NCBI RefSeq assembly: GCF_000015945.1
Contig: NC_009033.1
Location: 1,020,001-1,052,000, forward strand
From: Staphylothermus marinus F1
GTDB taxonomy: Archaea > Thermoproteota > Thermoprotei_A > Sulfolobales > Desulfurococcaceae
DNA length: 32,000 nt
Direction of reading: 5' to 3'
Shown here: positions 1,132-17,378 of the stretch, piece after piece
Layout: each line of letters opens with the position of its first letter
How positions within the stretch are numbered: position 1 is the stretch's first letter
The notes under the pieces: model-generated
Seen by the model: only the letters and a program-made list of their open reading frames with translations
Database searches by the model: none
What the model was told of the DNA's origin: nothing
Program-made: the position numbers and the translations under genes

Positions 1132-1833
1132 ATGATGGCTGTAATTCTTGCAGGAGGTTTCGGTAAGAGATTACGTCCATATACAGAGGAAATACCTAAG
1201 CCCCTAGTTAGCGTTGCTGAAAAACCAATTCTTGAATGGCAAATTGAATGGTTGAAACAGTATGGTTTCAATGAGTTCGTATTACTTGTAGGATATAGGA
1301 AAGAGAAAATAATAGAACATATTGGGAGTGGTGGAAAACTGGGTGTTAAAGTAACATATGTTGTTGAAGACGAACCATTAGGAACAGGTGGCGCAATCAA
1401 GAACGCTGAACATATTCTTTCTAAAGAGGAGAAATTCTTAGTATTAAACGGAGATATATTAACAAATCTTAATCCAATGAAACTATTCGAAAAACTAGAT
1501 GAGCACCCAGAATTCGTAGCTGTAATAGCTAGTATACCATTACCTAGCCCTTACGGTGTACTGGAGATAAAGGATTCCAAAGTAACAGGTTTCGTTGAAA
1601 AACCAAAACTACAAGATTACTGGATAAACGCCGGCATATATGCAATGAAGCCTTCGGCTCTAAAATACTTCCCAGAGAGAGGGGATCTGGAGAGAACAGC
1701 GTTTCCGGCAATGGCTAAAGATGGAGTTCTAGGAGCCGTTAAGTATACAGGTGTATTCTGGAAATCTGTAGATACATATAAGGATCTAGAAGAAGCAACT
1801 AAAGCAATAATAAAGCTTGGAGGCAAATTATAA
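1132..1833 (+). CDS. sugar-phosphate nucleotidyltransferase (NDP-sugar pyrophosphorylase family)
   Basis: N-terminal AVILAGGFGKRLRPYTEEIPKPLV is the G-x-G-x-R-L nucleotidyltransferase signature. Length and the LGTGGA motif fit mannose-1-P/glucose-1-P nucleotidyltransferases. Sugar specificity cannot be determined. Confidence 0.85.
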   Translation: MMAVILAGGFGKRLRPYTEEIPKPLVSVAEKPILEWQIEWLKQYGFNEFVLLVGYRKEKIIEHIGSGGKLGVKVTYVVEDEPLGTGGAIKNAEHILSKEEKFLVLNGDILTNLNPMKLFEKLDEHPEFVAVIASIPLPSPYGVLEIKDSKVTGFVEKPKLQDYWINAGIYAMKPSALKYFPERGDLERTAFPAMAKDGVLGAVKYTGVFWKSVDTYKDLEEATKAIIKLGGKL

Positions 1834-1900
1834 TCAGATTTTCCGGCTCTCATCACAGCCTTTTTCATAGGGCTCATGAGACCCTCTTATCATCACTTAA
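1831..1900 (-). ncRNA. candidate C/D-box sRNA (2'-O-methylation guide)
   Basis: The minus strand reads TTAA-GTGATGA(C, 1896..1890)-12 nt-ATGA(D', 1877..1874)-17 nt-GTGATGA(C', 1856..1850)-12 nt-CTGA(D, 1837..1834)-TTAT. Both guides are exactly 12 nt and a 3-bp terminal stem (TAA/TTA) is present. It lies in non-coding DNA right after the 1132..1833 stop codon. Confidence 0.45.
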
Positions 1901-2055
1901 CCACAATAATAACAATAAGTATATGGGGCTAATAATAGTTAAATAAAATTTAGTTAGTTCAAAAATATTTATTTTTACCCATAAATCCTCTAGGCTAGTA
2001 GAAACAAAGTTTTAAACCTTGAATAAATAAACCATTTATAGACTCGATGCTAGAT

Positions 2056-2131
2056 GCGGCGGTCGTCTAGCCTGGACTAGGACGCCGGCCCTCCAAGCCG
2101 GAGATCCCGGGTTCAAATCCCGGCCGCCGCA
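2056..2131 (+). tRNA. tRNA-Gly (anticodon UCC) with unusual C at position 33
   Basis: Folds as GCGGCGG-TC-GTCT...GGAC-G-CCGGC-CCTCCAA-GCCGG-AGATC-CCGGG-TTCAAAT-CCCGG-CCGCCGC-A, a 76-nt cloverleaf. The central triplet of the 7-nt loop is TCC. TTTATAGA at 2035-2042 is a plausible TATA box. Confidence 0.85.
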
Positions 2132-2245
2132 TTACCTTAATTAGGCTGAATATTTTTATCTCTATACTTTATCTGTTAAGTATATATGTAATGTCTCTAA
2201 TCATATAGTATAGTTATACATTAGCCCACAGTTTTTACCATAACA

Positions 2246-2253
2246 TTTTATAG
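2246..2253 (+). promoter_or_regulatory. TATA box (TTTTATAG) positioned for a leaderless transcript starting at ATG 2279
   Basis: The box centre lies about 27-29 nt upstream of ATG 2279 and no good SD precedes that ATG. This pattern is typical for first genes of crenarchaeal operons. Confidence 0.4.
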
Positions 2254-2278
2254 TTTGCTTGGTTATACGGGGTATTGG

Positions 2279-3385
2279 ATGCTAAAAACTATTATATTAA
2301 GTATGCGGGGGTTGTCATTTTTGAGATTTACATGGATGTGTAAAAATCCACCATCAATTACTGCAGGGCGTTCAAGAATCAAAATATCTATAATAGGTGC
2401 TGGTCCTGGAGGGCTTGCCGCAGCAGGCTATTTCGCTTGTCTAGGCTACTCCGTAACAGTATATGATAAACAACCATTACCTGGAGGAATGATGGTTTTC
2501 GCCATTCCTAAAGTTAGGATACGTGATGAAACAGTATTGGAAGGCATATATGAGCTTAGAGATAAGTTCGGTGTTGTCTTTAAGAATAATATTAAGATAT
2601 TCGGTAATCATGAACCACCAAAAGAGGAAGGCGATCACTTCGTGAAGGAACTGATTAATCTAAAAGATATTGTTGATGAAAGTGATGCGGTCCTAATTAC
2701 GACTGGTACATGGCAAAGTAGAAAACTAAGAATACCTGGAGAGGAAGGTCCTAGAGTTATGAGCGCAGTAGAGTATCTCTACGACATACGTGTTTGGGAG
2801 AAAGGGTTGGTTGATCATAAACCGAGTGTTGGGAGAAAAGTAGTAATAATAGGTGCTGGTTTAAGCGCGGTGGATGCAGCTCTGGAGGCACTTGAACAAG
2901 GTGTTGAAGAAGTTATGATTGCTTATAGGAGAACAAAGAAACAAGCTCCTGCAGGTGTCTATGAGATAAACAAACTTATAAAAAGAGGTGTTAAATGGAT
3001 TGAGCTCGTTAGCCCAGTAGAGATAATCAGAGAGAATGGAGGAGTGAAAGCGATTCGCCTACAAAGAATGAGGCTTGGAGAACCTGATGAAAGCGGTAGA
3101 CCAAGACCAATACCTATTCCTGGAAGCGAATTCGACTTAGAAGCAGATACAATAATTGAGGCAATAGGAGAAATACCTACTCCGCCTCTTGTCAACGGAT
3201 ACCTAGGAATAAAGCTAGATAAAAGAAACAAAATAATTGTAGATGAAAAATTTAGAACAAGTAATCCAAAAGTATGGGCCGCTGGAGACGTTGTAACAGG
3301 CCCTAGCTTCATAGGTAATGCAATAAAAACTTCTCTCTACGCATCTAAATCTATACATACATATTTAAGTGGCAAGATTTTATGA
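2279..3385 (+). CDS. FAD/NAD(P)H-binding oxidoreductase, GltD/SudA-like (glutamate synthase small-subunit family) lacking the N-terminal Fe-S domain
   Basis: Two Rossmann motifs are present, ISIIGAGPGGLAAAG (FAD) and VVIIGAGLSAVDAALE (NAD(P)H), plus the C-terminal VWAAGDVVTGPS FAD motif. The start is uncertain: the track ORF starts at TTG 2255, with in-frame ATGs at 2279, 2303 and 2336. I chose 2279 from the TATA spacing. Confidence 0.85.
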   Translation: MLKTIILSMRGLSFLRFTWMCKNPPSITAGRSRIKISIIGAGPGGLAAAGYFACLGYSVTVYDKQPLPGGMMVFAIPKVRIRDETVLEGIYELRDKFGVVFKNNIKIFGNHEPPKEEGDHFVKELINLKDIVDESDAVLITTGTWQSRKLRIPGEEGPRVMSAVEYLYDIRVWEKGLVDHKPSVGRKVVIIGAGLSAVDAALEALEQGVEEVMIAYRRTKKQAPAGVYEINKLIKRGVKWIELVSPVEIIRENGGVKAIRLQRMRLGEPDESGRPRPIPIPGSEFDLEADTIIEAIGEIPTPPLVNGYLGIKLDKRNKIIVDEKFRTSNPKVWAAGDVVTGPSFIGNAIKTSLYASKSIHTYLSGKIL

Positions 3386-3405
3386 GCTAGCCTCACATAT
3401 ATGAG

Positions 3406-3942
3406 GTGTCCAATATAGCCACATCTACTTCTAAAAATGAAAAAGAACTCGTATATATGAGATACATAGATCTAGATAAGTGTATAGGCTGTTATACGTG
3501 TGAGGCAGTATGCGACTTCCTACACAACGGTAAACCATTCATTAAAATCTATGAAACAAGCATTGGACTAAGAACACCTATTTCGTGTCTACACTGTAGT
3601 CGTGCACCATGCATCGAGGTATGTCCCACAGGAGCTATGACAAGGGATGAAAGTGGCGCAGTTTATGTTGAGTACATGAAATGTATAGGTTGTATGGCGT
3701 GTCTATATGCATGTCCATTTGGTATACCAGAGCTTGATCCCAAGGTGGGTGTGTCGACAAAGTGTGATTTATGTAGACCATTACGTGCCCAAGGCTTGGA
3801 TCCAGCCTGCTATGCGATGTGTCCAGCAGAAGCGATTATGTATGGTAAACCTAAAGATATAAGCGAACAAATTAGAAAGAGGAAAGCGGAGTTAATGATC
3901 AAAGCAAAGATGTCCGGGCCCAGCACAGAATCGATAAGTTAA
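3406..3942 (+). CDS. hycB: HycB/HyfA-like 4x[4Fe-4S] ferredoxin-type electron-transfer subunit
   Basis: Four cluster motifs are present: CIGCYTCEAVC, CLHCSRAPCIEVCP, CIGCMACLYACP and CDLC...CYAMCP. It sits immediately upstream of the HycC-like gene, as in hycBCDEFG. The start may be ATG 3457 (MRYIDLDKCIGC), which aligns better with the HycB N-terminus. Confidence 0.85.
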   Translation: MSNIATSTSKNEKELVYMRYIDLDKCIGCYTCEAVCDFLHNGKPFIKIYETSIGLRTPISCLHCSRAPCIEVCPTGAMTRDESGAVYVEYMKCIGCMACLYACPFGIPELDPKVGVSTKCDLCRPLRAQGLDPACYAMCPAEAIMYGKPKDISEQIRKRKAELMIKAKMSGPSTESIS

Positions 3943-4015
3943 TATTGAAAATATAAATATTCATAGTTTTATTTATTAATTGACTTAATATAACCACCTT
4001 TGCAAGGGAAAACAC

Positions 4016-5491
4016 ATGATAATCACAATGATGATTATCTATGTAATTTTCATGATTTTATCAATATCTGTAATTTATCTACCTGTGCGGAAAAGGAGCC
4101 TATTAGTATTCTTAAGAGTAATTGCATATGTATTACCTGCTATTTTGTCTTTATTAGGATTATTCGACCCCATTTCATTCGTATTTATAGCAGTGGCCAT
4201 ACCTGTAGGGTTGCTCGTTAGCTTATATAACTTATGGTATGCTGGATCAAAATATGATAGAAGTTGGGATCTAGTTCGTTTACTGGACTTATTCAACATA
4301 ACCATTATATATACATTTCTAGCTCCTAATTTATTGCTATTTATATCTATATGGACAATCACTGAAATCATTGGTTTTCTACTTGTCAGTTTCGAGGGTG
4401 GAGACGAAGCTTTTCGTGCAGGATATAGGTTCTTTTTCCTGAAGAGCTTGGCATTTGAGTTATCTGCACTTTCCATATTAGCTATTTTGTCTCAGAATAT
4501 TAGCATAATTGATTCTTTAATATTGCCATTCAATGAGTTACCTAAGACATACTTAGATCTTATACAAGCATTGCTTGTTACACTAGGATTCATTACTACA
4601 TCAGCAATAGTGCCTCTTCATTTTTGGCTACCAAATGCTCACAGTATCGCTCCAAGTAGTGCATCAAGCGTATTGAGTGGATTAACGGTAAAGATGGGAT
4701 TCTATGGATTGATAAGAATAACTAGTTTTCTTAGATTACCGATTAGCTATTGGTGGATATTGCTTAGCCTAAGTATTCTTACATCAATTTATGGGTTTAC
4801 AGTTTTACTTGTTCAAAAAGATATTAAGAGACTACTTGCATACAGTACCATTGGCAATACAGGTTTCATAGCGGCTCTCTTATCAATATATGCAATATCA
4901 CATAATAACCTTCTATATACTGCCACGATGCTTAACATATATGCTCATGCAATATATAAGGCTGCATTATTCATTAATACTGGGACAATAGTTATGTTAG
5001 CACATACTCGAAACATAGAGCGTCTAAGCGGGTTGGTTGCTTTTACTCCTTATTCTAGTATGGGTGTTCTATTTAACATCTTGAGTGTTATAGGAGTACC
5101 TCCAACAATAGGTTTTATAGGTAAGTTAGTTGCTGTTGTTGCGTTATTAATAGTTAATGATTTAGCTTTGAAGATGCTGGGGTTACTAACTATTGTTTAT
5201 GCAATACTTATAAGTATTATCTATGGTTATAGAATATTATCTATACACTGGCGCGTTACATCAATTGAATTCTCGGCTTCTTATATACCTTTATATCCGC
5301 AGATAATCGAGCTGATAATGGGTAGTTTGGGCATAATTTATGGGTTAATTATTTTTCTCTTGTTCAATGTTGGAATGTTGCTTATTCTTTCCATTGTAAA
5401 TGTCTTTGCACTTCTACTAGTTGCTGTATTGATCGCAGTCTTCTACTACAATATTAGAGCACGTATAATGAGGGAGGTGAGTACGAGTTGA
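4016..5491 (+). CDS. hycC: antiporter-like membrane subunit 1 (HycC/HyfB - NuoL/M/N - MrpD family)
   Basis: A polytopic membrane protein carrying the family motif LHFWLPNAHSIAPSSASSVLSGLTVKMGFYGLIR. Confidence 0.85.
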   Translation: MIITMMIIYVIFMILSISVIYLPVRKRSLLVFLRVIAYVLPAILSLLGLFDPISFVFIAVAIPVGLLVSLYNLWYAGSKYDRSWDLVRLLDLFNITIIYTFLAPNLLLFISIWTITEIIGFLLVSFEGGDEAFRAGYRFFFLKSLAFELSALSILAILSQNISIIDSLILPFNELPKTYLDLIQALLVTLGFITTSAIVPLHFWLPNAHSIAPSSASSVLSGLTVKMGFYGLIRITSFLRLPISYWWILLSLSILTSIYGFTVLLVQKDIKRLLAYSTIGNTGFIAALLSIYAISHNNLLYTATMLNIYAHAIYKAALFINTGTIVMLAHTRNIERLSGLVAFTPYSSMGVLFNILSVIGVPPTIGFIGKLVAVVALLIVNDLALKMLGLLTIVYAILISIIYGYRILSIHWRVTSIEFSASYIPLYPQIIELIMGSLGIIYGLIIFLLFNVGMLLILSIVNVFALLLVAVLIAVFYYNIRARIMREVSTS

Positions 5492-7035
5492 TGCTTATGA
5501 ATAGTGTTGACGCTAGTATTCTAGTTACCAAATACCTTATCTTAGCAACTTTATCATCATTAATACTTATCGGTGGAAGCATTGTTGATAAAAGAAGAAT
5601 TTTGGGTAGGATTCTCCGTGTAATAGGATATATTGGAATTATCTTGTTTGTTGTGATTGATGCATTGTATATGCATATTTTAAATAGTATATCTTATCCA
5701 TTTCTGTTATTGCTTAGCCTTATCTGTGTTTCTATAACCATTTATACAGAGGGATACTCTAGAGTCTTATTTGGTATGGCGAGAGTTTTACAAGTACCGG
5801 TAGAGATACTATCAGTTTCTATGTTGATGTTGTTTTCTTCAACACTATTGATAGAATTTGTAATGTTTTGGATTATAACTGAGCTCATAGGTTTTATGAT
5901 AATATTATTTAATGGAACACATGAATCGTGGAGAGCTGCCATAACTTATCTAGTAGTTGGTGCATTAACAGCTGATATAAGCTTATTCACAGTGCTTGCA
6001 GTTCTTGCTCAAAATATCGGGTTAGAAAATATATTTTCGCTCTCAATTAAGAATATAATGCTTTTACAAAGTAGTGTTAATCCACTATTATCTATATTGA
6101 TTCTTTTAGGCTTTATAGCGAAAGCAGCTCTTGTCCCATTTCATTTCTGGTTGCCAGACGCTTATACAGTGGCACCTACTCCAGCATCGGCTCTCTTTAG
6201 TGGAGTTATGGAGAAAATGAGTGTCTTTAGTATACTAATTATATTCTACATGATTAATGTTGATTATATCCTTACTGGTACGATATTGATTATACTGGGT
6301 CTACTAACATCTATCTATGCTGGTTTACAAGCTATTCTACAATCTGATGCTAAGAGGTTGTTATCATATAGTACTATGGGTTATAGTGGTTGTATAATGG
6401 GCTTTGTAGGACTTTATGCCCTTACTGGTTTTGAAGAAATAGTATTATATGCTTTTCTGCTCCTAATCTTTGCTCATGGTCTCTCTAAGTCACTACTTTT
6501 TATGAATGCTGGTACCATGGAGATTCTTGCAAATACAAGGGAAATATACGATCTAGGATATCTAGCTAGGATAGATAGAAGAGGTGCATTCACAATTGTA
6601 TTTGGTGGATTAAGTCTTTTAGGGGCTCCTCCAACTATTGGTTTTATAGCAAAGTTCTTAGGGTTTGCAGCTGCATTGTTTGCTGTTATAAGATATGGAG
6701 TAATAGGTGTCCCATTGCTTGTCTCGCTAGCATTCATGTCTGCAGCTGGGATCGTATATGTGCTGAAATACTTGGGGAGCTATTATGGGGGATACAAGCC
6801 TTTTATCGGCAGGGTCATTAAGTACTATCTCTTAGATTGGGGCGAAATTCTTAGTGTTATTCTAATAATTGTTCTAGGAATAGTTGGATCATATATGGTA
6901 TATGTTCTGCTTTCATCGATTTATGTGTTAATACTAGATATTATTTTACTCTTGGCGTTGTTGATTACGCAACTAAATATTAAGAGGATAAAAATACGTG
7001 AAGAAGAACCCTGGATTGGAGGTGCTTATCCATGA
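5491..7035 (+). CDS. antiporter-like membrane subunit 2 (HycC/HyfB - NuoL/M/N - MrpD family)
   Basis: Carries FHFWLPDAYTVAPTPASALFSGVMEKM. The ATG at 5491 overlaps the upstream TGA (TGATG) and GGAGGTGA lies at 5473-5480. The track lists TTG 5488 as the start. Confidence 0.85.
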   Translation: MLMNSVDASILVTKYLILATLSSLILIGGSIVDKRRILGRILRVIGYIGIILFVVIDALYMHILNSISYPFLLLLSLICVSITIYTEGYSRVLFGMARVLQVPVEILSVSMLMLFSSTLLIEFVMFWIITELIGFMIILFNGTHESWRAAITYLVVGALTADISLFTVLAVLAQNIGLENIFSLSIKNIMLLQSSVNPLLSILILLGFIAKAALVPFHFWLPDAYTVAPTPASALFSGVMEKMSVFSILIIFYMINVDYILTGTILIILGLLTSIYAGLQAILQSDAKRLLSYSTMGYSGCIMGFVGLYALTGFEEIVLYAFLLLIFAHGLSKSLLFMNAGTMEILANTREIYDLGYLARIDRRGAFTIVFGGLSLLGAPPTIGFIAKFLGFAAALFAVIRYGVIGVPLLVSLAFMSAAGIVYVLKYLGSYYGGYKPFIGRVIKYYLLDWGEILSVILIIVLGIVGSYMVYVLLSSIYVLILDIILLLALLITQLNIKRIKIREEEPWIGGAYP

Positions 7036-7337
7036 GTCTAGCAAAAGCATCAATTATTTACGAATTGGAAAAAATTCTGAGAAAAGTCAGGAGAGGGATA
7101 ACTAATATTAGGGAACCATTAAGCCGTATCGGCGCTGAAATAATTGTTTCTCCCAGTATTGTGGGAGCCAAGATCGAGGAAGCGATTTTGCGATCAGCTG
7201 ATAGGTTTGCAGAGAAAATTAATAGTGTTCAGAAAAGTATTGAGGAAAGTCTTGTAATGAGCAGTTTGTATATAGGCTTCCTTATGACTATGACAATAAT
7301 AGTTGCAACGGTGATACTGTATGTTATTGGATATTAG
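7032..7337 (+). CDS. small operon-internal protein: charged helical N-part plus one C-terminal TM helix; function unknown
   Basis: An ATGA start/stop overlap links it to the upstream gene and a 17-nt overlap links it to the downstream gene. The only hydrophobic segment is the C-terminal LYIGFLMTMTIIVATVILYVIGY. I recognise no family motif. Confidence 0.6.
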   Translation: MSLAKASIIYELEKILRKVRRGITNIREPLSRIGAEIIVSPSIVGAKIEEAILRSADRFAEKINSVQKSIEESLVMSSLYIGFLMTMTIIVATVILYVIGY

Positions 7338-8226
7338 CATTTATGTTATTTCTTTTATAGTATTCCTATTTATTCCACCACTCCTTGATGGTTTAGAGAG
7401 AAAGATTAGAGCTAGACTGCATAGCAGAGTAGGACCTCCTACAATTTTTCAGACATGGTACGATATAAGGAAATTACTAGCTAAAGAACAAGTTGCAACA
7501 GATACGTTCGTTAACACTTTTTTCATCGTGTCTATACTATTTACCACATCTATGTTAACGATCCCACTTATGCCGTTTGGATCTATAGGTATATTCTCTA
7601 ATAGCCGGAACAGCTTAATATTATTCATAATACTTTTGGCTTCTTCTCAGCTATTATGGGTAGCTTTAAGCTTATCTCCTGGAAATCCTTTTTCAACTAT
7701 AGGTGTTTATAGAGAAGCTTTATTGGAAATGGTTAATGAGTTATTCTTAATTCTTACTGGTTTTGGCTTAATGGTGTATATAGGTGGTACAAGCTTCCGC
7801 GATTTAACGAACATAAACTATTCCGCAATATATATTCTTTTCATTGTTTTATTAATTGTTATATCGTATGTGTCTTCTGGAAGAGTGCCATTCGATCTAG
7901 CTGAAGCAGAACCCGAACTTGCTAGTGGAGTGCTTATTGAGTTTAGTGGTCCAATACTAGGTATTGTTCTCTATACAAACTTTCTCAAACGGGCTATACT
8001 TTGTGGGTTTATTGCCAATTTAATACTATTGCCGCTGAAAAGCTTGGTTAATGATATTGTACTGGCTGCTTTATTTTATTTGCTATTATTTTTTATTTGG
8101 CTTATCTACGCTATAGTCAGTATATTGTTGGCTAGATCGAGAATAGATTTAGCTCCTAGAACGATGTTTGTTGTTTATTTACTCTTTTATTCAATAATTG
8201 TTGTTTTATGGTTAATAGGGATATAA
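7321..8226 (+). CDS. hycD: HycD/NuoH-like membrane subunit
   Basis: N-terminal LDGLERKIRARLHSRVGPPTIFQTWYDIRKLLAKE matches the NuoH/HycD signature (xDRKxxARxQxRxGPP). The protein is polytopic. Confidence 0.88.
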   Translation: MLLDISIYVISFIVFLFIPPLLDGLERKIRARLHSRVGPPTIFQTWYDIRKLLAKEQVATDTFVNTFFIVSILFTTSMLTIPLMPFGSIGIFSNSRNSLILFIILLASSQLLWVALSLSPGNPFSTIGVYREALLEMVNELFLILTGFGLMVYIGGTSFRDLTNINYSAIYILFIVLLIVISYVSSGRVPFDLAEAEPELASGVLIEFSGPILGIVLYTNFLKRAILCGFIANLILLPLKSLVNDIVLAALFYLLLFFIWLIYAIVSILLARSRIDLAPRTMFVVYLLFYSIIVVLWLIGI

Positions 8227-8255: not shown

Positions 8256-9902
8256 ATGATAAATAGAATTGATAGTGTCAGGCAGCATATCATAGAGAAA
8301 CTAGGAGATATTGTAAAGGAAACTAAGTATATCGGTGACCAAGCTTTAATGTTGCGTATAGATAGAAATTATTTAAGAAAAGCTGTAGACATAATTCATA
8401 ATGATCTGAATGCGTATTTTAGAACTATGGTAGCGGTTGATGAAAGATCGTTGAATGGCACTTTTGCGTCTTATTATATTTTTGGACTTGACGCAGCTCA
8501 TTTAAATATAATTGTTAAGACACATACTAGCGCTGATGAACCTGTTTTACCGTCAATAATTGATATTGTCCCGGCTGCTGATTGGTATGAGTTGGAAGCT
8601 TGGGATCTATTAGGGATCAAGTTTGAAAATAGAAAGGTTCACAGGTTTGTTCTACCTGATGAGTGGCCTGAAGGAATATATCCTCTGAGAAAAGATGTTG
8701 AATATACCTATAGGCCTAAACCTAGGAAAGTTCCCAGACAACCACCCACGGGTCAACGAATACCTATCGGACCATATCATCCCGCACTACACGAGCCTGA
8801 ATATTTTGAACTATACGTAGAAGGAGAGAAAGTAGTTGATGTAGAATATAATGGCTTTCATGTTCATAGAGGTATAGAAAAACTCGCTGAGGCACCTCGA
8901 TTTAATTATCAAAAAATACCTTTCTTAGCTGAGAGAATATGTGGCATATGTGGATTCGTTCATAGCGTATCATACACTATGAGCGTTGAAAGAGCAGCAA
9001 AAATAGATGTTCCGGAGAGAGCAGAGTATATTCGAAGCATTATTTTAGAGATTGAACGCTTACATAGCCACTTATTATGGATAGGGGTAGTATGTCATCT
9101 TCTCGGCTATGATGCAGGGTTTATGCATACTTGGAGGATTAGAGAAAAAGTGATGGTACTTGCAGAGCTCTTAACGGGAAGTCGTAAAACATATGGTATA
9201 AATCTCGTTGGAGGAGTGAGAAAAGATATAAACATGGACAAAATTGAGGCTGTAAAGAACACTATAGAATATATTCGATCAGAGTTTAAACATCTTTCAG
9301 ATCTAATTACAAGTATTTCGCAAATAGTTAAAAGAGCTAGTGGCACAGGCATTTTGTCAAGAGATGATGCAAGAAAGCTCTCGGTAGTAGGACCTGTTGC
9401 TAGGGGTTCGGGTCTCGACAGGGATGTTCGTAGGGATTATCCATATGCTGCATATAGAGATGTTTATTTTAAAGTACCAGTCTATAATGAGGGAGATAAT
9501 CTAGCCAGGCTTCTCGTTAGAATAGATGAAGTATTTGAATCTATATATATTCTAGAACAACTAATTGATAAATTGCCCGGAGGACCCATAATGGCTGAAA
9601 AGCTAGAAGTTCCTGAGGGAGTAATAGGTATAGGAAACGTTGAGGCACCACGAGGCGAGGTAATACATGTAACTATAACGGGTCATGGAAGACCTTATCG
9701 TTGGAGAGTTCGTGCGCCTACTTATCAGAATATTCCAGCATTGAAAATTATGCTTCGCGATGCACCATTAGCTGATGCACCATTAACTATAGCTAGCATT
9801 GATCCGTGTTTCTCATGTACGGATCGAATAGTAATAGTGGATCTAAGATCAAATAGGAGATTTAAAGCTTCTATGGAGCAAATAATTAAGGCGGGAAGGT
9901 GA
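8256..9902 (+). CDS. hycE: [NiFe]-hydrogenase large subunit, HycE-type NuoC-NuoD fusion (group 4)
   Basis: The N-terminal NuoC-like domain carries ADWYELEAWDLLGIKF. Both Ni-Fe ligand pairs are retained, RICGICGFVHS and DPCFSCTDR, followed by a 24-aa C-terminal tail. Confidence 0.92.
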   Translation: MINRIDSVRQHIIEKLGDIVKETKYIGDQALMLRIDRNYLRKAVDIIHNDLNAYFRTMVAVDERSLNGTFASYYIFGLDAAHLNIIVKTHTSADEPVLPSIIDIVPAADWYELEAWDLLGIKFENRKVHRFVLPDEWPEGIYPLRKDVEYTYRPKPRKVPRQPPTGQRIPIGPYHPALHEPEYFELYVEGEKVVDVEYNGFHVHRGIEKLAEAPRFNYQKIPFLAERICGICGFVHSVSYTMSVERAAKIDVPERAEYIRSIILEIERLHSHLLWIGVVCHLLGYDAGFMHTWRIREKVMVLAELLTGSRKTYGINLVGGVRKDINMDKIEAVKNTIEYIRSEFKHLSDLITSISQIVKRASGTGILSRDDARKLSVVGPVARGSGLDRDVRRDYPYAAYRDVYFKVPVYNEGDNLARLLVRIDEVFESIYILEQLIDKLPGGPIMAEKLEVPEGVIGIGNVEAPRGEVIHVTITGHGRPYRWRVRAPTYQNIPALKIMLRDAPLADAPLTIASIDPCFSCTDRIVIVDLRSNRRFKASMEQIIKAGR

Positions 9903-9909
9903 TCATGTT

Positions 9910-10437
9910 ATGTTAGTTAGAAAACTCCTAAAACCATTAAAACTGATCTCTGTCGCAAAGAAGGCAGGAGTAGTAACTGTATTATATCCGTATCAAAAAC
10001 CACTTATTACCAGTGAATTCCGCGGAAAAATATCTATAGATCCTTCGAAGTGTATAGCTTGTGGAGCATGTGTAAATGTTTGCCCTCCCAATGCATTGAC
10101 TTTATCTAAGCAAGAAAACATAATAATGATTAATTATTTTATAGGCAGGTGTATATTTTGTGGTAGGTGCGCCGAAGTCTGCCCAGTAGGTGCAATAACG
10201 GTCACCAACGAATTCGAACTTGCATCTACACGAATAGATGATTTAAGCTCTACATTAATACATAAGATATATGAATGTTCTAATTGCGGATCAGCTTATA
10301 TAACCAGAAAAATGAAGCAGTTTATTATAAATAGAGTTCCAGTCTCCGAAAACTATATAGATCTATGCCCAGATTGTAGAAAGAAGAAATTCTATTCGTC
10401 AATTGCTTTAAGAAGAGGGGTTAGAGTTGAAGAGTAA
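9910..10437 (+). CDS. hycF: HycF/NuoI-like 2x[4Fe-4S] subunit with C-terminal CxxC...CxxC tail
   Basis: Carries CIACGACVNVCP and CIFCGRCAEVCP, plus CSNCG...CPDC. E. coli HycF has the same arrangement, from memory. Confidence 0.88.
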   Translation: MLVRKLLKPLKLISVAKKAGVVTVLYPYQKPLITSEFRGKISIDPSKCIACGACVNVCPPNALTLSKQENIIMINYFIGRCIFCGRCAEVCPVGAITVTNEFELASTRIDDLSSTLIHKIYECSNCGSAYITRKMKQFIINRVPVSENYIDLCPDCRKKKFYSSIALRRGVRVEE

Positions 10438-10906
10438 AGATAATATTTTGAAGAAAAGTATATGGGTGTTTCATCTCAACACGGGGAGTTGTAATGCCTG
10501 CGACATCGAGATACTAGACGCTCTAACCCCATATTTCGACGTTGAAAGATTTGGTATTAAGCTTGTAGCATCACCTAGACACGCAGACCTAGTACTCTTA
10601 ACGGGTCCTATAACTCTGAAGACATTACCTAAAGTTATCAATGCGCTTAGAGCAGTTCCTAGACCTAGATACGTGATGGCAATAGGTGCTTGTGCTGTGG
10701 GGGGAGGCATATGGTATGATTCATACTCCGTAATAGGAGGAGTTGATGAATTAAAGAAGATTCTTGAAGAATACGGTATAGAAATAGATAAAATAGTATA
10801 TGTTCCAGGATGCCCTGCCAGGCCAGAAGCGATCATATATGGCGTAGCATTACTTCTAGGGTTAGTTAAACAAAAAGTTGCTAAGGAGGTGAAAATTATT
10901 GAATAA
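10427..10906 (+). CDS. hycG: [NiFe]-hydrogenase small subunit, HycG/NuoB-like
   Basis: GSCNACDIEIL, GACAVGGG and PGCPARPE are the NuoB/HycG proximal-cluster ligand motifs. The TTG start overlaps hycF by 11 nt. Confidence 0.9.
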   Translation: MKSKDNILKKSIWVFHLNTGSCNACDIEILDALTPYFDVERFGIKLVASPRHADLVLLTGPITLKTLPKVINALRAVPRPRYVMAIGACAVGGGIWYDSYSVIGGVDELKKILEEYGIEIDKIVYVPGCPARPEAIIYGVALLLGLVKQKVAKEVKIIE

Positions 10907-11162
10907 ACCAATTATGCAATTGAAAATTTATATTTGCAAATATGTCGAGAAAGAAAAAACTCTAGCTTCTAGACATATGATTGCCTCTATTGGAATTTGT
11001 AAATTGCTAGGTGAGAAAGAACTTGATTTAGAAAATTTACCCGAAGAAAATAGAAAAGCGTTACGTTTAAGAGGTGAAACTAACTTGTTTGATCCTATAT
11101 TAATTAAGAAATTGTTTGATCTCAATATTTCCCCTGAATACTATATTAAATTAAAGATATAG
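10899..11162 (+). CDS. small soluble hypothetical protein between the hydrogenase and Mrp modules
   Basis: TTG 10899 lies 6 nt after a strong AGGAGGTGA (10884-10892) and overlaps the hycG stop by 8 nt. The product is hydrophilic and K/E-rich with no TM segment. I recognise no family. Confidence 0.55.
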   Translation: MNKPIMQLKIYICKYVEKEKTLASRHMIASIGICKLLGEKELDLENLPEENRKALRLRGETNLFDPILIKKLFDLNISPEYYIKLKI

Positions 11163-11171
11163 GGGATAATA

Positions 11172-11456
11172 TTGAGCTTAGAACATCAAGTAACCTTGTT
11201 TATATTGTTCGTCTTTCCATTCTATTTATTGGCTTTTACATTATATATTATCAGGGCTATTCGCGGACCTAGTATTCCCGATACAGTACTAGCTATTGAC
11301 GCATTATCTTTTGATATTGCAGCTTTCCTCGCTTTATTATCTATAATATATCGTTCACCAATATTGATAGCTTGCACAATAGTTCTTGCATTATGGGTTT
11401 ACGCCTTAGATATATATGTTTCAAAATACTTTACACATAAGGAAATGGGTGAATAG
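11172..11456 (+). CDS. mnhF: Mrp/Mnh antiporter subunit F-like
   Basis: About 90 aa with 3 TM helices. The motif IRAIRGPSIPDTVLAIDAL matches MnhF/PhaF (R..GP...DR..A.D). Confidence 0.8.
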   Translation: MSLEHQVTLFILFVFPFYLLAFTLYIIRAIRGPSIPDTVLAIDALSFDIAAFLALLSIIYRSPILIACTIVLALWVYALDIYVSKYFTHKEMGE

Positions 11457-11458
11457 AT

Positions 11459-11845
11459 GTGTTTGAAGAGTTATTGGTATATTTTGGAGAAATACTCGTA
11501 GTTATAGGTGTATTCTGTGATTTAGCAGCATCTATAGGCATGATTAGATTTCCAAACTTTTATACACGTATGCATGCAGCTACAGTTGGTACAATTGGTG
11601 GAGCAGTTGTTCCGTTGATCGGCGTAGCATTCATTGCATTGGGATCTACATGGCTGGGCGTATATAGGTTTTTCTTGTCCGGTGCAAGTTTCGTAGCGGC
11701 ACTACTAATAATGATATTAGCTCCCGTTGGTACGCATGTCCTTGCTCAAGCTGCTCATCATGCGGGATTAGCTCCTAAACAGCCAATAAATTTTGATCAT
11801 TTAGAAGAAGATCTAAAATATGAATTGGAGGATAAGAAAGAATGA
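11459..11845 (+). CDS. mnhG: Mrp/Mnh antiporter subunit G-like
   Basis: IGMIRFPNFYTRMHAATVGTIGGA matches the MnhG signature (lR.PD.y.R.HA..k..tlG). GTG start. Confidence 0.82.
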   Translation: MFEELLVYFGEILVVIGVFCDLAASIGMIRFPNFYTRMHAATVGTIGGAVVPLIGVAFIALGSTWLGVYRFFLSGASFVAALLIMILAPVGTHVLAQAAHHAGLAPKQPINFDHLEEDLKYELEDKKE

Positions 11846-12099
11846 TTAAAGAATTTACTCTAGCTTTCCTAATGCTGGTAAGTATTGCTAGTGTAATAGC
11901 TGCTTATCTAGCTATTAAAGAAAGAGATATGGTTAGAGCAATTGTTTACTCCGCGATTCAAAGTGCGATGTATGCATTAATATTTTATATTCTAATGGCT
12001 CCAGACATTGTATTAGTCTATGTTCCGGTCTCAGTCGGTCTAACACCTGCTATCTTATTGTTTGTTACGAAGAAAACTGAGAGATATGATGGTGACTGA
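11842..12099 (+). CDS. MbhD-like / MrpB N-terminal-type small membrane subunit
   Basis: 85 aa with 3 TM helices and the motif RDMVRAIVYSAIQSAMYALIFYILMAPDIVL. An ATGA overlap links it to mnhG. Confidence 0.7.
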   Translation: MIKEFTLAFLMLVSIASVIAAYLAIKERDMVRAIVYSAIQSAMYALIFYILMAPDIVLVYVPVSVGLTPAILLFVTKKTERYDGD

Positions 12100-12102
12100 G
12101 AA

Positions 12103-12897
12103 ATGAAAACATCAGATATTTTCGTGATTATTTCTATTATTGTATTCATATTCAGCTTAGCATACATAACTAGTCTTGGTGGTTTAGGAGAGCTGCCACC
12201 AATAAATATAAGGCAGCTTGCAAAAGTGTACTTATCCTCAACATATAATCCCTATAATATTACTAATACTAGCAGTGGTTATGAAAGTGTAACTGCTATA
12301 GTATGGGATTTCCGTGGTTTAGACACTTTCTTCGAAACAGCGGTATTCTATGGCGCCGTAATAGCATCTATAGCGATCTATAGGGGAGTTAAAATAGAGG
12401 GTGCTGGTAAAGCTTATGGTATGAGCCCAATAGCCAAAACAGTTACTAGAATAAGCCTAGTATTGATCCCTACTGTTGCTTCTTCTATAGCGTTACACGG
12501 ACATTTAACGCCGGGTGGAGGTTTTCAGGCTGGAAGTGTAGCTACAGTGATAGTTATTCTCGTAATCATGGTGTTTGGTTATAGGGCATTAACGAGTAAG
12601 GGGTTAACTAAGTCTAGAGTTTTATTGTTAAGAAGCGTTGGATTATTAGGTATAGGTATAACGACCATTGCATTATTATTAGTAGCAATGATCCTTGGCT
12701 TAAATGCATATATTTTCCAAAACCAGCCTAAGCTGGACACTCCATTAGCGTATCCTATGTGGATAGATAACATGTTGGTTGGAGGCAGTCTATTATTATT
12801 TAATATTTTTGAATATATTGCTGTCACAGCTGGTTTCACATTAGTGCTCCTACTTCTAAGTGTTGAAGAAGAAAAGGTTTTAGAGGTGTTGAAATAG
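12103..12897 (+). CDS. mnhB: Mrp/Mnh antiporter subunit B-like
   Basis: VTAIVWDFRGLDTFFETAVF and HGHLTPGGGFQAG are characteristic MnhB-domain motifs. Confidence 0.82.
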   Translation: MKTSDIFVIISIIVFIFSLAYITSLGGLGELPPINIRQLAKVYLSSTYNPYNITNTSSGYESVTAIVWDFRGLDTFFETAVFYGAVIASIAIYRGVKIEGAGKAYGMSPIAKTVTRISLVLIPTVASSIALHGHLTPGGGFQAGSVATVIVILVIMVFGYRALTSKGLTKSRVLLLRSVGLLGIGITTIALLLVAMILGLNAYIFQNQPKLDTPLAYPMWIDNMLVGGSLLLFNIFEYIAVTAGFTLVLLLLSVEEEKVLEVLK

Positions 12898-13295
12898 TGG
12901 AGACAACATTGTTTATTTCAAGTGTTATTGTTATTTGTCTCTATGTAAACTTAGGTATTGCTTTATATGGGATATTTGCAAGGCCAAGCTTAGTGAAGAA
13001 ATTACTAGCCATAACGATATTGTCAGACACAGCTAATGCTTTTGCAATACTAGTTGGTTATAGATGGCCTAAGAATGGAACACCTCAACCCCCTGTTCTC
13101 ATGAATAAAACACCATATAATGAATCTATTAAATATTATATTGAGCACTCTGTTGATCCATTACCTCAAGCATTAGTCTTAACCGCGATTGTTATAGGAT
13201 TAGCAGTTACTCTGTTCATAGCATTCATAATCATACAATATTATAGGCTTCATGGTACAGTCGATGTTAGAAAAGCTAAGGGGCTGAGAAGGTGA
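12897..13295 (+). CDS. mnhC: Mrp/Mnh antiporter subunit C-like (NuoK-like)
   Basis: Size, 3-TM topology and position after MnhB fit. The GTG start overlaps the upstream TAG by 1 nt. Confidence 0.72.
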   Translation: METTLFISSVIVICLYVNLGIALYGIFARPSLVKKLLAITILSDTANAFAILVGYRWPKNGTPQPPVLMNKTPYNESIKYYIEHSVDPLPQALVLTAIVIGLAVTLFIAFIIIQYYRLHGTVDVRKAKGLRR

Positions 13296-13301
13296 GGTTT
13301 A

Positions 13302-13808
13302 ATGTATGAATTAAAAAGATCTATCCCAGCTATCATTGTTTCCTTCATTATCTATATAATTTTTACTGGAAGCATAAGCTTATATGATGTTTTGACGGGA
13401 ATAATGGTTGCTGTAATAATAGGTTTACTTACTGGTGTATTTATTGTTGAAAACCCAGGTAAAGCATTAAGCATTAGAAGAGCATTATATATGTTAAAAT
13501 ATATTATTTGGTATTTCCTAGTCGCCGAGACTAAAGCACATTTAGATGTAATTAAAAGAGCCCTCAGCCCTAAACCATACCTAAACCCCGGAATAATTAG
13601 AATACCATATAATGTTTCAACAGATTATGCTATGACACTCATTGCAAACTCTATAACTAATACCCCGGGTACAGTGGTTGTCGATATAAACCAAGATAAG
13701 AAACTGTTCTATGTACACTGGATAGATACGAAGACTCGTGATCCCATTAAGGCATGGAAAATAATTAGTTCTAAGTTTGAGAGCTATGCGCAGAAAATAT
13801 TTGATTAA
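13302..13808 (+). CDS. mnhE: Mrp/Mnh antiporter subunit E-like
   Basis: 168 aa with two N-terminal TM helices followed by a soluble domain, and located inside the Mrp gene set. The assignment rests mainly on size, topology and context. Confidence 0.65.
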   Translation: MYELKRSIPAIIVSFIIYIIFTGSISLYDVLTGIMVAVIIGLLTGVFIVENPGKALSIRRALYMLKYIIWYFLVAETKAHLDVIKRALSPKPYLNPGIIRIPYNVSTDYAMTLIANSITNTPGTVVVDINQDKKLFYVHWIDTKTRDPIKAWKIISSKFESYAQKIFD

Positions 13809-13820
13809 CAATGTGTATGG

Positions 13821-15482
13821 GTGGTATGTATGACTGCTATGCCTGAGACAAGCCTTGGAATAATCCCTCTTTTGTTGACAATATCAGCCTTTGTTATACC
13901 CTTGCTTACACTAATAATTAAGAAGAGAATATTTTATCACATCTATGCGTTTATATTCGGGTTTCTGGCTTTGATCTATACTATTCTTAATTTTAATCTT
14001 GTAAACATTGTGTATAGAAAACCAATAGCATATAATTTCGGTGGATGGATCGCACCTATAGGAATAATATACATTGTAGATGGACTCGGCAGTTTGCTTG
14101 GCTTATTAGTCGCTATTGATATGCTAATAGTTATCATCTATAGCTGGTGGTATATGCGGAGTGAAGAGGGCGTAGAATGGTACTATACATTGCTTCTCCT
14201 ATTGGAAGCTGCTATGATAGGAATAGTTTATACGGGTGATATATTCAATTTATTCGTAATGATTGAATTATTAGCTATTAGTGCTTATGGACTCGTGGCC
14301 TTTCATAGAGATCGTAGAGAAGCCATTGAAGCAGCCGTTAAGTATAGTTTAATAGGTGCTACAGCCACAACAATGTTTTTCCTAGCAATAGTGTTCATTT
14401 ATGGCACATATGGAACTGTTAACATGGCTGATCTTGCGGTAAAATCTAGATCTGCATGGATATGTGCTGAAGCAGAAAATGTATGTAAATTCTTCAGCAT
14501 AATGAGTGGAAATAGTTACGGCAATCCAATACTGGCTACTGCTATTGCCATAGCATTTGCGTTATGGGCTTTCACTTTTAAAGCAGCGATCTTTCCTAAT
14601 CATTTCTGGTTACCAGATGCTCATCCCGAGGCACCTACGCCTGTGTCGGCGGCGCTTTCAGGACTTGTTGTTAAAATGGGTGCATATGCTACTGTGAGGA
14701 TAATGTATACGGTTTTCGGGATTAATTCATTAATAGATGTGCCTTCTCCTTCTGGCGTAAGTTTGAGGGATACACTAATGTTTATAATAATGTTGCTTGG
14801 AGCGATCTCAGCGATCATTGGTAGTCTGGTTATGGTAATACAGAACGATGTTAAAAGAATACTTGCGTACTCTACAATAGCTCACTTAGGAATGATATTT
14901 ATGGGTATAGGTGCAGGTTTAAGAGGCTTAAATACTACTGTTCTCTCGCTTGTTATCGTTGCCGTAACTCTACACATAATTAATCATAGCTTCGGAAAAA
15001 CATTGGCTTTTCTATCAAGCGGTATATTCATAAAGGCCACTGGAACACGTAATATTCTTCAAATGCGTGGAGTAGGAAGATTAACACCTATAACATCGAC
15101 AGCATTGATTATATCATTACTTCACTTATTAGGTGTACCGCCTTTCGGAGGTTTCTTTAGTAAACTGTTATTATTTAATGCTTTAATGATGTCTGGACAA
15201 CTGGTGTTTGCATTAATACTAATATTATCAACAGCTATAAGCATGTTGGGATACATGAGAATAATAGTCAATTTAATAATACCGCCGCGTCCTTCAAGGC
15301 TTATAGGAAAAGTTAAGGAAAACCCTATATCATCATTTACGCTTATAGTACTGGTTTTAATAATATTAGGATTAGGAGTATGGTGCTTGCTGGGGGGAAT
15401 AGATTATATTGAAGAAATTGTTGGTTCAACAAGTACAGTTAAGGGGATCTTAGAATATATTACTTCTCCTCTGTTGAGGTAG
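13821..15482 (+). CDS. mnhD: Mrp/Mnh antiporter subunit D-like (NuoM/N-type antiporter-like subunit 3)
   Basis: Carries NHFWLPDAHPEAPTPVSAALSGLVVKMGAY and is polytopic. The start could be GTG 13821 or ATG 13830. Confidence 0.88.
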   Translation: MVCMTAMPETSLGIIPLLLTISAFVIPLLTLIIKKRIFYHIYAFIFGFLALIYTILNFNLVNIVYRKPIAYNFGGWIAPIGIIYIVDGLGSLLGLLVAIDMLIVIIYSWWYMRSEEGVEWYYTLLLLLEAAMIGIVYTGDIFNLFVMIELLAISAYGLVAFHRDRREAIEAAVKYSLIGATATTMFFLAIVFIYGTYGTVNMADLAVKSRSAWICAEAENVCKFFSIMSGNSYGNPILATAIAIAFALWAFTFKAAIFPNHFWLPDAHPEAPTPVSAALSGLVVKMGAYATVRIMYTVFGINSLIDVPSPSGVSLRDTLMFIIMLLGAISAIIGSLVMVIQNDVKRILAYSTIAHLGMIFMGIGAGLRGLNTTVLSLVIVAVTLHIINHSFGKTLAFLSSGIFIKATGTRNILQMRGVGRLTPITSTALIISLLHLLGVPPFGGFFSKLLLFNALMMSGQLVFALILILSTAISMLGYMRIIVNLIIPPRPSRLIGKVKENPISSFTLIVLVLIILGLGVWCLLGGIDYIEEIVGSTSTVKGILEYITSPLLR

Positions 15483-15505: not shown

Positions 15506-16510
15506 TTATTTTATCTTCAAAACAGCTTGGCCCTTGATCTTTCCATGTTTAAGGTCTTGTAACGCCTTGTTGGCTTCTTCCAATTTATAAATCGTTATAT
15601 CAGGATATATTCTGTACTTTGACGCTATATCTAGAAATTCCCGGACATCTCTACGTGTAACGTTAGCTGTTGTTTTTACTTCTCTCTCTAACCATAATAG
15701 TTTATAATCAAGTTTCTCAATTGGCGACATATAGATTTCTCCTAAAACAACTCTTCCGCCCTTATCTAGTTTTTTCAATGCTTCGATAAAGACCCATGAT
15801 ACGGGTGCGAACACTATTGCTGCATCCAATTTGTTAGGTGGTGTTTCTTTTGTATCTCCAGCCCAATCTGCTCCGAGCTTATATGCGTACTCTATCTTCC
15901 ATGGACTATGTGTGAATACATAAACAGTTAAACCAAGTGCTTTTGCAGCTTGGAGAATTAGATGTGCTGACGCACCAAACCCGAATAAGCCTAGTATACC
16001 ATCTCTCTTATCTACTAGCCCAGTTAAGCGTAGAGCTCTATACCCAACAGCACCAGCGCATAGTAGAGGAGCGGCTTTACAATCGTCATGAGTATTTGGA
16101 AGTGGATGTACAAAGTCTTTCTTAGCGATCATGTATTCAGCGTATCCTCCATCAACGCTGTATCCAGTAAATAATGCATGATCACATAGGTTTTCTAACC
16201 CTCTCCTACAATACTTGCATTTCCCACATGCCCAGTAAAGCCATGGAACTCCTACTCTCATACCTTTACTTACATTATCAACATTTTCCCCAACCTCTTT
16301 TACCCGAGCCACTACTTGATGACCAGGTATGAGAGGTAATTTAATGGGCTTGAGTTCCCCCTCAACAATATGTAGATCAGTCCTACAAACTCCACAACAT
16401 GATATCTCTAATAATACTTCGTCTCCACGCGGATCCCTTATATCAACATCACTAAGCTTTAATGGATTCTTCTCTACAGGTTTAGGCTCGTAGAGAACCA
16501 TGGCTTTCAA
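15506..16510 (-). CDS. adh: zinc-dependent alcohol dehydrogenase (medium-chain dehydrogenase/reductase)
   Basis: Carries CGVCRTDLH (catalytic Zn), CGKCKYCRRGLENLC (structural Zn) and GLFGFGASAH (Rossmann). A GHQ variant replaces the GHE motif. Confidence 0.9.
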   Translation of the reverse strand: MKAMVLYEPKPVEKNPLKLSDVDIRDPRGDEVLLEISCCGVCRTDLHIVEGELKPIKLPLIPGHQVVARVKEVGENVDNVSKGMRVGVPWLYWACGKCKYCRRGLENLCDHALFTGYSVDGGYAEYMIAKKDFVHPLPNTHDDCKAAPLLCAGAVGYRALRLTGLVDKRDGILGLFGFGASAHLILQAAKALGLTVYVFTHSPWKIEYAYKLGADWAGDTKETPPNKLDAAIVFAPVSWVFIEALKKLDKGGRVVLGEIYMSPIEKLDYKLLWLEREVKTTANVTRRDVREFLDIASKYRIYPDITIYKLEEANKALQDLKHGKIKGQAVLKIK

Positions 16511-17356: not shown

Positions 17357-17378
17357 AAATTAGATATGGTGAATAAAT

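Follow-up and report, generated by a model that had tools for sequence, protein, structure and literature searches.

A formate hydrogenlyase-type hydrogenase cluster of Staphylothermus marinus F1 with an Fdh3B-type flavoprotein in the place of formate dehydrogenase: a probable NADP(H)-linked, ion-coupled group 4 hydrogenase

In the formate hydrogenlyase (FHL) of Escherichia coli, HycB is the docking subunit and passes electrons to HycF. A gene cluster of the archaeon Staphylothermus marinus F1, which lies in a 32,000-nt stretch of contig NC_009033.1 (positions 1,020,001–1,052,000; this whole stretch is called the window, and all positions below are counted within it), encodes a hydrogenase of the same type, but next to its HycB-like ferredoxin (Smar_1056) stands a short flavoprotein (Smar_1055). 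The most fitting description is that of an FHL-type hydrogenase with an Fdh3B-type NADP(H) flavoprotein substituted for FdhA. Smar_1055 and Smar_1056 together with the hydrogenase probably constitute a reversible, ion-coupled NADP(H):H+/H2 oxidoreductase. The proteins encoded in the window for the flavoprotein, the ferredoxin and the hydrogenase large subunit (Smar_1061) are exactly ABN70153, ABN70154 and ABN70159 of S. marinus F1. The closest described system on the flavoprotein side is Fdh3 of T. onnurineus, an NADP-dependent formate dehydrogenase that has been purified; it comprises the tungsten FdhA Fdh3A, the short flavoprotein Fdh3B, which binds NAD(P), and two HycB-like Fe-S subunits (Yang et al., 2022, PMC8965080). 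Fdh3 strongly favors NADP+, has measurable NADPH-dependent CO2 reduction and works with both NADP and ferredoxin, and Arg204–Arg205 of Fdh3B have been assigned to the 2′-phosphate (Yang et al., 2022, PMC8965080).

The locus itself has been discussed in two genome papers, in which it belongs to the "dehydrogenase-linked MBX complex" of Desulfurococcaceae and is called MBX-related. In the S. marinus genome, Smar_1055 was found to resemble SudA, to be 120 aa shorter and to lack a SudB, and to adjoin Smar_1057–1071, the "Smar3" cluster, which comprises the genes 3′ of Smar_1056 (Anderson et al., 2009, PMC2678158). The same authors identified no formate dehydrogenase and no COG0243 enzyme in this genome, and no NSR, sulfhydrogenase, SudB or other known sulfur reductase; a polysulfide reductase supplied by a ferredoxin-oxidizing membrane complex was their suggestion, together with the proposal that ferredoxin is the source of NAD(P)H made by the cluster (Anderson et al., 2009, PMC2678158). 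In the genome of Thermosphaera aggregans, a sudA homolog was found in place of fdhA, and a NADPH dehydrogenase-linked complex that oxidizes NADPH with protons or sulfur as acceptor was proposed (Spring et al., 2010, PMC3035292). The S. marinus operon was grouped there with T. aggregans Tagg_0050–0059 and with that of D. kamchatkensis, and the antiporter (Mrp) genes, present only in the S. marinus version, were tied to sulfur dependence (Spring et al., 2010, PMC3035292). The reading as an NADPH-linked membrane hydrogenase is already published in these papers of 2009–2010, and an earlier note on this DNA, which proposed that NAD(P)(H) is coupled to H+/H2 through HycB, is a rediscovery, because Spring et al. 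(2010) stated the same model for the same operon. New here are the intact HycE-type large subunit, the linkage counted across uncultured relatives and the tie to Fdh3B.

The open reading frame (ORF) of Smar_1055, which runs from 2279 or 2321 to 3385, matches Pyr_redox_2 (E = 3e-35) and, at 515 bits, clears the cut-off of 343 for the family NF009409/PRK12770 ("putative glutamate synthase subunit beta," about 350 aa). The alignment spans residues 135–462 of T. maritima NfnB and residues 152–472 of P. furiosus NfnI-L. Since the aligned span starts at NfnB residue 135, the flavoprotein keeps the FAD and NADPH domains but has no counterpart of the N-terminal domain with its two clusters. The AlphaFold2 model, for which 29 homologs were used (predicted local distance difference test, pLDDT, 89; predicted template modeling score, pTM, 0.86), has NfnI-L (5jca_L) as its best Foldseek match, with template modeling scores (TM) of 0.78 (query) and 0.62 (longer target); Nfn-ABC, NfnB and GltD are further top matches, with TM of about 0.6 on the longer targets. 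The two-Rossmann FAD and NADPH fold is common to NfnI, SudA and GltD (5jca, 4ylf, 6s6s; TM 0.75–0.80, 34–38% identity), whereas the N-terminal two-[4Fe-4S] domain of NfnB, SudA and GltD, about 120–130 aa long, is missing, as is a small NfnA/SudB or GltB partner. Both GxGxxG motifs and a YRR motif (Y216-R217-R218) are invariant across the aligned family. A single-protein scan of genome contigs gave distant bacterial GltD-like matches only. The earlier note had described a GltD/SudA-like flavoprotein with intact FAD and NAD(P)H motifs and no N-terminal Fe-S domain; its motifs, fold and missing domain are borne out, but the nearest functional relative is Fdh3B, not SudA. The protein has the length of about 350 aa, the YRR motif and the score above the NF009409 cut-off that characterize the Fdh3B-type family, and shares 49% identity with the Fdh3B ortholog of T. 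cleftensis along its whole length.

The flavoprotein probably starts at the TTG at 2321, giving 354 aa as in WP_244372344, because its relatives begin with MKFxFMCK, the 14 residues before this peptide in the 368-aa form are poorly conserved even in comparison with S. hellenicus, and residues 1–13 of that form, which differ from S. hellenicus, have pLDDT below 50. The start at 2279 and the 30–40 aa ahead of the first GxGxxG that were assumed earlier are corrected accordingly: with the start at 2321, about 25 aa precede this motif, a single Cys among them. Cys21 (2339–2341; 368-aa numbering) and Cys54 (2438–2440) are invariant in 29 of 29 aligned members, including the fusion linked to aldehyde oxidoreductase (AOR; see below). 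Cys21 is within the MKFxFMCK peptide, and Cys54 ends the first Rossmann helix, where NfnB has Lys. The two residues could form a structural disulfide, contribute to a ferredoxin interface or provide a cluster ligand.

The ferredoxin Smar_1056 begins 20 nt 3′ of the flavoprotein gene, consists of 178 aa and matches Fer4_11. Its 16 Cys, arranged in four cluster motifs as the earlier note had counted them, are predicted to hold four [4Fe-4S] clusters. Its closest solved relatives are HycB3 of the hydrogen-dependent CO2 reductase, AorA, the Fe-S subunit of WOR5 and E. coli HycB. By the 49% identity to the T. cleftensis ortholog and the invariant YRR motif, the gene pair 2321–3942 is the counterpart of Fdh3B plus Fdh3G2, a module known to carry electrons between NADP(H) and a catalytic subunit by way of [4Fe-4S] clusters. 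Within the NF009409 family, FAD content and NADP(H) activity are known for T. onnurineus Fdh3 only. In both systems a short GltD-like flavoprotein is followed by a HycB-like four-cluster protein and the Arg-Arg pair is kept; the catalytic partner in Fdh3 is a soluble tungsten FdhA, whereas that in S. marinus is a membrane [NiFe]-hydrogenase. Two of the related loci described below (L103 and L108, the latter from T. cleftensis) contain FdhA, two Fe-S proteins, a formate transporter, the short flavoprotein and a 150-aa HycB-like protein, and this gene set is the fdh3 cluster. In these loci the fdh3-type cluster lies about 200 nt upstream of a canonical mbh operon on the same strand (L108, 6058–19968; L103, 7041–20103). 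An frhAGB-like hydrogenase is also encoded upstream of the fdh3-type cluster in T. cleftensis.

The genes of the S. marinus cluster, all on the forward strand, and the evidence for each are as follows.

2321..3385 (annotated alternative start 2279), + strand: short GltD/NfnB-type FAD/NADP(H) flavoprotein, Smar_1055 (NF009409, NfnB alignment, AlphaFold2/Foldseek); start probable
3406..3942, + strand: HycB-like ferredoxin, Smar_1056 (Fer4_11, PDB matches, 16 Cys)
3943..4015, no strand: AT-rich gap of 73 nt that separates the first membrane subunit from the ferredoxin (sequence)
4016..5491, + strand: HycC/NuoL-like antiporter-type membrane subunit 1 (Proton_antipo_M; top NCBIfam match, hydrogenase 4 subunit B)
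5488..7035, + strand: HycC/NuoL-like antiporter-type membrane subunit 2 (Proton_antipo_M)
7032..7337, + strand: small protein, 101 aa, with a hydrophobic segment at the C-terminus (no Pfam match; conserved position)
7321..8226, + strand: HycD/NuoH-like membrane subunit (PF00146)
8256..9902, + strand: HycE-type [NiFe]-hydrogenase large subunit, fused NuoC–NuoD, with C-terminal tail (7z0s_E, 448 bits; motifs)
9910..10437, + strand: HycF-like Fe-S subunit, two clusters (NF009053, 139 bits, under the cut-off of 204)
10427..10906, + strand: HycG/NuoB-like small subunit (PF01058; NF005012, 118 bits)
10899..11162, + strand: small protein, 87 aa, in the hycH position (no Pfam match; positional homologs)
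11172..15482, + strand: Mrp-type module of MrpF, MrpG, MbhD-like, MnhB, MnhC, MnhE and MnhD (Pfam matches)

By Pfam and NCBIfam matches, the gene order is HycB, C, D, E (fused NuoC–D), F, G, which is the subunit set of FHL and confirms the hyc order recognized in the earlier note. The large subunit has an intact active site. Among solved structures it scores 448 bits against E. coli HycE (7z0s_E), 259 bits against P. furiosus MbhL and 184 bits against the corresponding subunit of the sulfane-reducing complex MBS (6u8y_L). It aligns with HycE over the full length and contains RICGICGF and DPCFSCTDR, hence both CxxC motifs of an FHL-type (HycE-like) group 4 large subunit with all four Cys ligands of the NiFe site, and its C-terminal tail resembles the tail that is cleaved from HycE. 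Homologs of the 101-aa ORF (7032–7337) occur at the same HycC–HycD position in many related loci, and genes of 88–89 aa occupy the position of the 87-aa ORF (10899–11162) after HycG in L023, L025 and L110; the two ORFs are likely to encode uncharacterized subunits or maturation factors.

Among described complexes, E. coli hydrogenase 3/FHL (7z0s) and the Thermococcales Fdh-Mfh-Mnh system share with this locus the HycB-C-D-E-F-G set and order and the fused NuoC–NuoD, and the Mrp module is common to Fdh-Mfh-Mnh and the S. marinus version. The locus differs from FHL in the flavoprotein next to HycB, in the lack of a formate dehydrogenase in the window and the genome, and in its two HycC-like subunits. 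A domain scan of the ORFs across the window, in agreement with the earlier note, revealed no molybdopterin and no carbon monoxide dehydrogenase (CODH) domain. With no FdhF/FdhA in the window and COG0243 reported absent, the locus does not encode a functional formate hydrogenlyase, and with no CODH domain it is not a CODH-linked hydrogenase of the Coo or Codh-Mch kind. It also differs from Mrp-Mbh (group 4d), in which MbhK and MbhL are separate and the Mrp-like genes come first (the Mbh of T. cleftensis in L108 served for comparison), whereas here NuoC–D is fused and the Mrp genes come last. Nor is it of the sulfane-reducing MBX/MBS type, given the retained NiFe ligands and the 184 bits for MBS as compared with 448 for HycE. 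NADPH-linked group 4b hydrogenases with homologs of SHI gamma and beta have been predicted in silico in bacterial lineages (2026, PMC13582414). The exchange with NADP(H) is alike in that prediction, but the NADPH module is different, consisting of SHI gamma/beta and a degenerate Fdh-like protein.

The arrangement is conserved well beyond S. marinus. With a profile built for the flavoprotein family, 80 loci (44–78% identity) were recovered from metagenomes; their ORFs were called and scored against the proteins of the window. An unfused flavoprotein gene with a HycB-like ferredoxin gene immediately 3′ is present in 50 of the 80. A HycE-like large subunit is seen in 36 of these 50, and six more contigs end early but enter HycC-like genes; the pair thus stands beside a hydrogenase in 42 of about 47 informative loci. 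The pair is found before the hyc-like genes, as in S. marinus, between an upstream Mrp module and the hyc-like genes, or after both Mrp and hyc, and a fourth type of locus has no Mrp at all. Named carriers are an Ignisphaera metagenome-assembled genome (MAG), a Thermogladius isolate, a Thermosphaera MAG and a "Sulfolobales" MAG. The spacing in the related loci is that of an operon: the gap between flavoprotein and ferredoxin genes has a median of about 3 nt, and that between ferredoxin and HycC ranges from −17 to 69 nt. The large subunits are intact [NiFe] hydrogenases: the N-terminal NiFe motif is kept in all 38 large subunits and DPCxxCxx[RH] in all 37 complete ones, with a tail of 17–30 aa in 36 and of 4 aa in one. 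Exactly 16 Cys are present in 44 of 53 ferredoxins. Among the best 120 homologs of the large subunit (at least 58% identity), all those with a named source belong to Thermoproteota lineages that also have the flavoprotein. The arrangement is therefore widespread and conserved in hot-spring and vent Thermoproteota, beyond the three isolates.

When the large unassigned ORFs were clustered and scanned, no FdhA or CODH was found adjoining the crenarchaeal hydrogenase-linked clusters; the possibility raised earlier that orthologous clusters always carry fdhA or cooS does not hold. The sole FdhA is that of L103, a Thermococcus contig, where it lies upstream in the known fdh3 cluster. A hidden molybdopterin partner was also looked for and rejected; four Ignisphaera-like loci have a Fwd-like molybdopterin/amidohydrolase gene pair about 2 kb away, which the related L025 lacks. 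In these loci (L032, 13535–16998; L033, L034 and L040) the pair lies downstream of the flavoprotein and ferredoxin genes and encodes a protein with Molydop_binding before Molybdopterin, followed by an Amidohydro_3 protein, a pairing that recalls FwdD/B plus FwdA.

The flavoprotein–ferredoxin pair also occurs apart from hydrogenases. In 20 of the 80 loci the two form a single fused protein of about 530 aa, and none of these loci shows a hydrogenase. Fusions of this kind lie in L026 (10001–11596), L027, L055, L067, L074, L076–L082, L085–L089, L091, L094, L099 and L105. About 17 of them adjoin a gene for an AOR-family tungstoenzyme, mostly divergent and often accompanied by a ThiS-like gene of 90–99 aa. 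This suggests an NADP-linked aldehyde oxidoreductase in Thermoproteota, with a logic analogous to that of bacterial AorABC. In a neighbor-joining tree the fused forms are one clade nested among the hydrogenase-linked forms, as would suit an adaptor put to work with more than one catalytic partner. That such fusions exist is a further argument that flavoprotein and ferredoxin act together.

The coupling of NAD(P)(H) to H+/H2 through HycB gains support from the conserved linkage, the intact NiFe motifs and the homology to Fdh3. NADPH rather than NADH is indicated as the nucleotide by the YRR motif together with the biochemistry of Fdh3. From this evidence we infer that the pair associates physically with the hydrogenase and that NADPH would be a substrate of the complex. 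Smar_1055 and Smar_1056 would form a two-protein NADP(H) adaptor, in which the FAD of Smar_1055 would exchange hydride with NADP(H) and then pass single electrons to the four [4Fe-4S] clusters of Smar_1056. As Smar_1055 itself lacks clusters, the one of Smar_1056 that is nearest to it would have to occupy the site of the N-terminal clusters in NfnB. Smar_1056 would dock on the HycF-like subunit in the way known for HycB of E. coli FHL, and electrons would proceed from HycF to the cluster of HycG and on to the NiFe site of the HycE-like subunit. Ion translocation may be coupled to this path through three antiporter-like subunits and the Mrp module.

The standard potentials of NADPH and H2 are about −320 mV and about −414 mV, respectively, from which the formation of H2 from NADPH costs about 18 kJ/mol at 1 bar H2. 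The reaction would be feasible at low H2 pressure or with inward ion flow through the antiporter-like and Mrp subunits, and Eha, Ehb and Ech are group 4 enzymes that run uphill reactions of this kind. The likely role of the complex in S. marinus, a peptide fermenter, would be to re-oxidize NADPH to H2, aided by low H2 pressure or an ion gradient; in the presence of H2 it may run in reverse, and H2-dependent reduction of NADP+ could then pump ions and conserve energy. S. marinus produces both H2 and H2S (Hao and Ma, 2003, according to a paper that cites it). An NADPH-to-H2 route would fill a gap in this organism, since it lacks NSR, sulfhydrogenase and SudB.

Several observations weigh against a NADPH-linked complex. 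The formation of H2 from NADPH is uphill under standard conditions. A HycF-like subunit can accept ferredoxin directly in Mbh, so that ferredoxin could still be a substrate here. About five unfused-pair loci with enough flank have no hydrogenase within the available sequence. The AT-rich gap ahead of the S. marinus hydrogenase genes, to which the earlier note drew attention, is real and at 73 nt the largest in the family; it holds the TATA-like AAAATATAAATA at 3948–3959 and may contain an internal promoter or a terminator. A scan of 1800–4300 with bacterial sigma-70 and terminator models, which are not made for an archaeal host, gave counts equal to the shuffled expectation. The pair serves soluble enzymes elsewhere: Fdh3 is encoded next to Mbh without known membership in it, and the fused forms stand beside AOR-family genes with no hydrogenase nearby. 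A search by locus tag returned only the two genome papers, and searches of the open-access literature by locus tag and topic gave no later experimental work and no transcript, co-purification or activity data for this complex; a paper on formate in D. amylolyticus does not deal with it. Some of these points would be accommodated if the genes were neighbors without association, Smar_1055/1056 being a soluble NADPH:ferredoxin-type oxidoreductase, or an NAD(P)H polysulfide reductase as suggested by Anderson et al. (2009, PMC2678158), and the hydrogenase being ferredoxin-dependent. The TATA-like element, the Thermococcus pair that belongs to a soluble enzyme despite its distance of only about 200 nt from the mbh operon, the fused forms away from hydrogenases and the two invariant Cys of the flavoprotein are all in keeping with this. 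However, 42 of about 47 informative loci keep the linkage to the HycE-like subunit, through three gene orders and with genes that overlap or nearly touch; the ferredoxin is of the HycB type that is the known docking subunit of FHL; and the two invariant Cys, which lie 33 residues from each other, are not a CxxxxC redox motif such as disulfide reductases have. Mere adjacency is quite unlikely because the linkage is conserved, and the gap and the precedent of soluble Fdh3 keep it in play.

An association of a different kind is a three-way junction, or confurcation, in which reduced ferredoxin feeds the hydrogenase at the HycF-like subunit while the flavoprotein branch exchanges electrons with NADP(H); the complex would then be a ferredoxin:NADP+ oxidoreductase, near to the proposal of 2009 that NAD(P)H is made from ferredoxin (Anderson et al., 2009, PMC2678158), or would make H2 from NADPH and ferredoxin jointly. 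The homologous FAD of NfnB/NfnI bifurcates, the closest solved folds are those of the bifurcating Nfn enzymes, and Fdh3 uses both NADP and ferredoxin (PMC8965080). Yet Smar_1055 is without the N-terminal clusters and the NfnA/SudB partner behind the two electron paths of Nfn, only one ferredoxin gene lies beside it, and the intact NiFe site and maturation tail argue that H2 is a substrate or product and the site no relic; a junction is unlikely. The same features bear on NADPH-dependent reduction of sulfur or polysulfide, in which S0 instead of protons would be the acceptor and which would explain the obligate need of S. marinus for S0. Spring et al. (2010, PMC3035292) named sulfur as the alternative acceptor and linked the Mrp genes to sulfur dependence, and S. 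marinus has no other known sulfur reductase (Anderson et al., 2009, PMC2678158). But the large subunit is far nearer to HycE (448 bits) than to MBS (184 bits), the four NiFe Cys and the cleavable tail are retained, and the cluster type is also present in Thermosphaera, which is inhibited by sulfur. Because the hydrogenase site is intact and the cluster occurs in a sulfur-inhibited organism, sulfur reduction is disfavored and very unlikely. A reversible NADP(H):H+/H2 oxidoreductase remains the favored reading of the cluster.

The surroundings of the cluster have features of their own. Upstream, tRNA-Phe(GAA) (954–1027, − strand) and tRNA-Gly(TCC) (2055–2132, + strand) bracket a nucleotidyl-transferase gene. 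As tRNA-Gly ends at 2132 and 188 nt separate it from the probable flavoprotein start, a promoter of the cluster, if any, is confined to 2133–2320. A Peptidase_M54 (archaemetzincin) gene is located further upstream at 284–844 (− strand), and its homologs are found just upstream of Mrp–flavoprotein–hydrogenase clusters in L109, L051, L054 and L057; this recurrence probably reflects a conserved neighborhood rather than function. Downstream, a Zn-dependent alcohol dehydrogenase gene (15506–16510, − strand) is convergent with the end of the Mrp module. It was considered as a part of the system and dropped because it is not conserved beside hydrogenase-linked loci: its homologs occur only in the AOR-linked L026 and L099, and at none of the other hydrogenase-linked clusters. 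Two small rubrerythrin/ferritin-like proteins are encoded at 17027–17855 (+ strand), and rubrerythrin-like genes also lie 3′ of the mbh operon in the T. cleftensis locus. Elsewhere the window encodes NrdD/NrdG, ThyX, dCTP deaminase, a transporter, FtsY and ribosomal proteins.

Comparative support for the hypothesis of an NADPH-linked membrane hydrogenase is stronger now than at the time of its first proposal, and a homolog of its NADP(H) module has been characterized biochemically. The chances are about even that, in a wider sense, the pair is a portable NADP(H) adaptor that makes a distinct and widespread Thermoproteota class of ion-motive-force-coupled NADPH:H+ group 4 hydrogenases, and that also serves FdhA in Fdh3 and, as a fusion, AOR-family enzymes. 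If so, enzymes with this adaptor could drive H2 evolution by reverse ion flow or conserve energy from the reduction of NADP+. Should the S. marinus complex work as proposed, it would be the first group 4 (complex-I-like) hydrogenase for which direct use of a pyridine nucleotide is shown, and would close the functional gap that separates energy-converting hydrogenases from NADH:quinone oxidoreductase. The re-oxidation of NADPH in sulfur-dependent peptide fermenters that have no NSR, soluble hydrogenases or Nfn would be explained as well.

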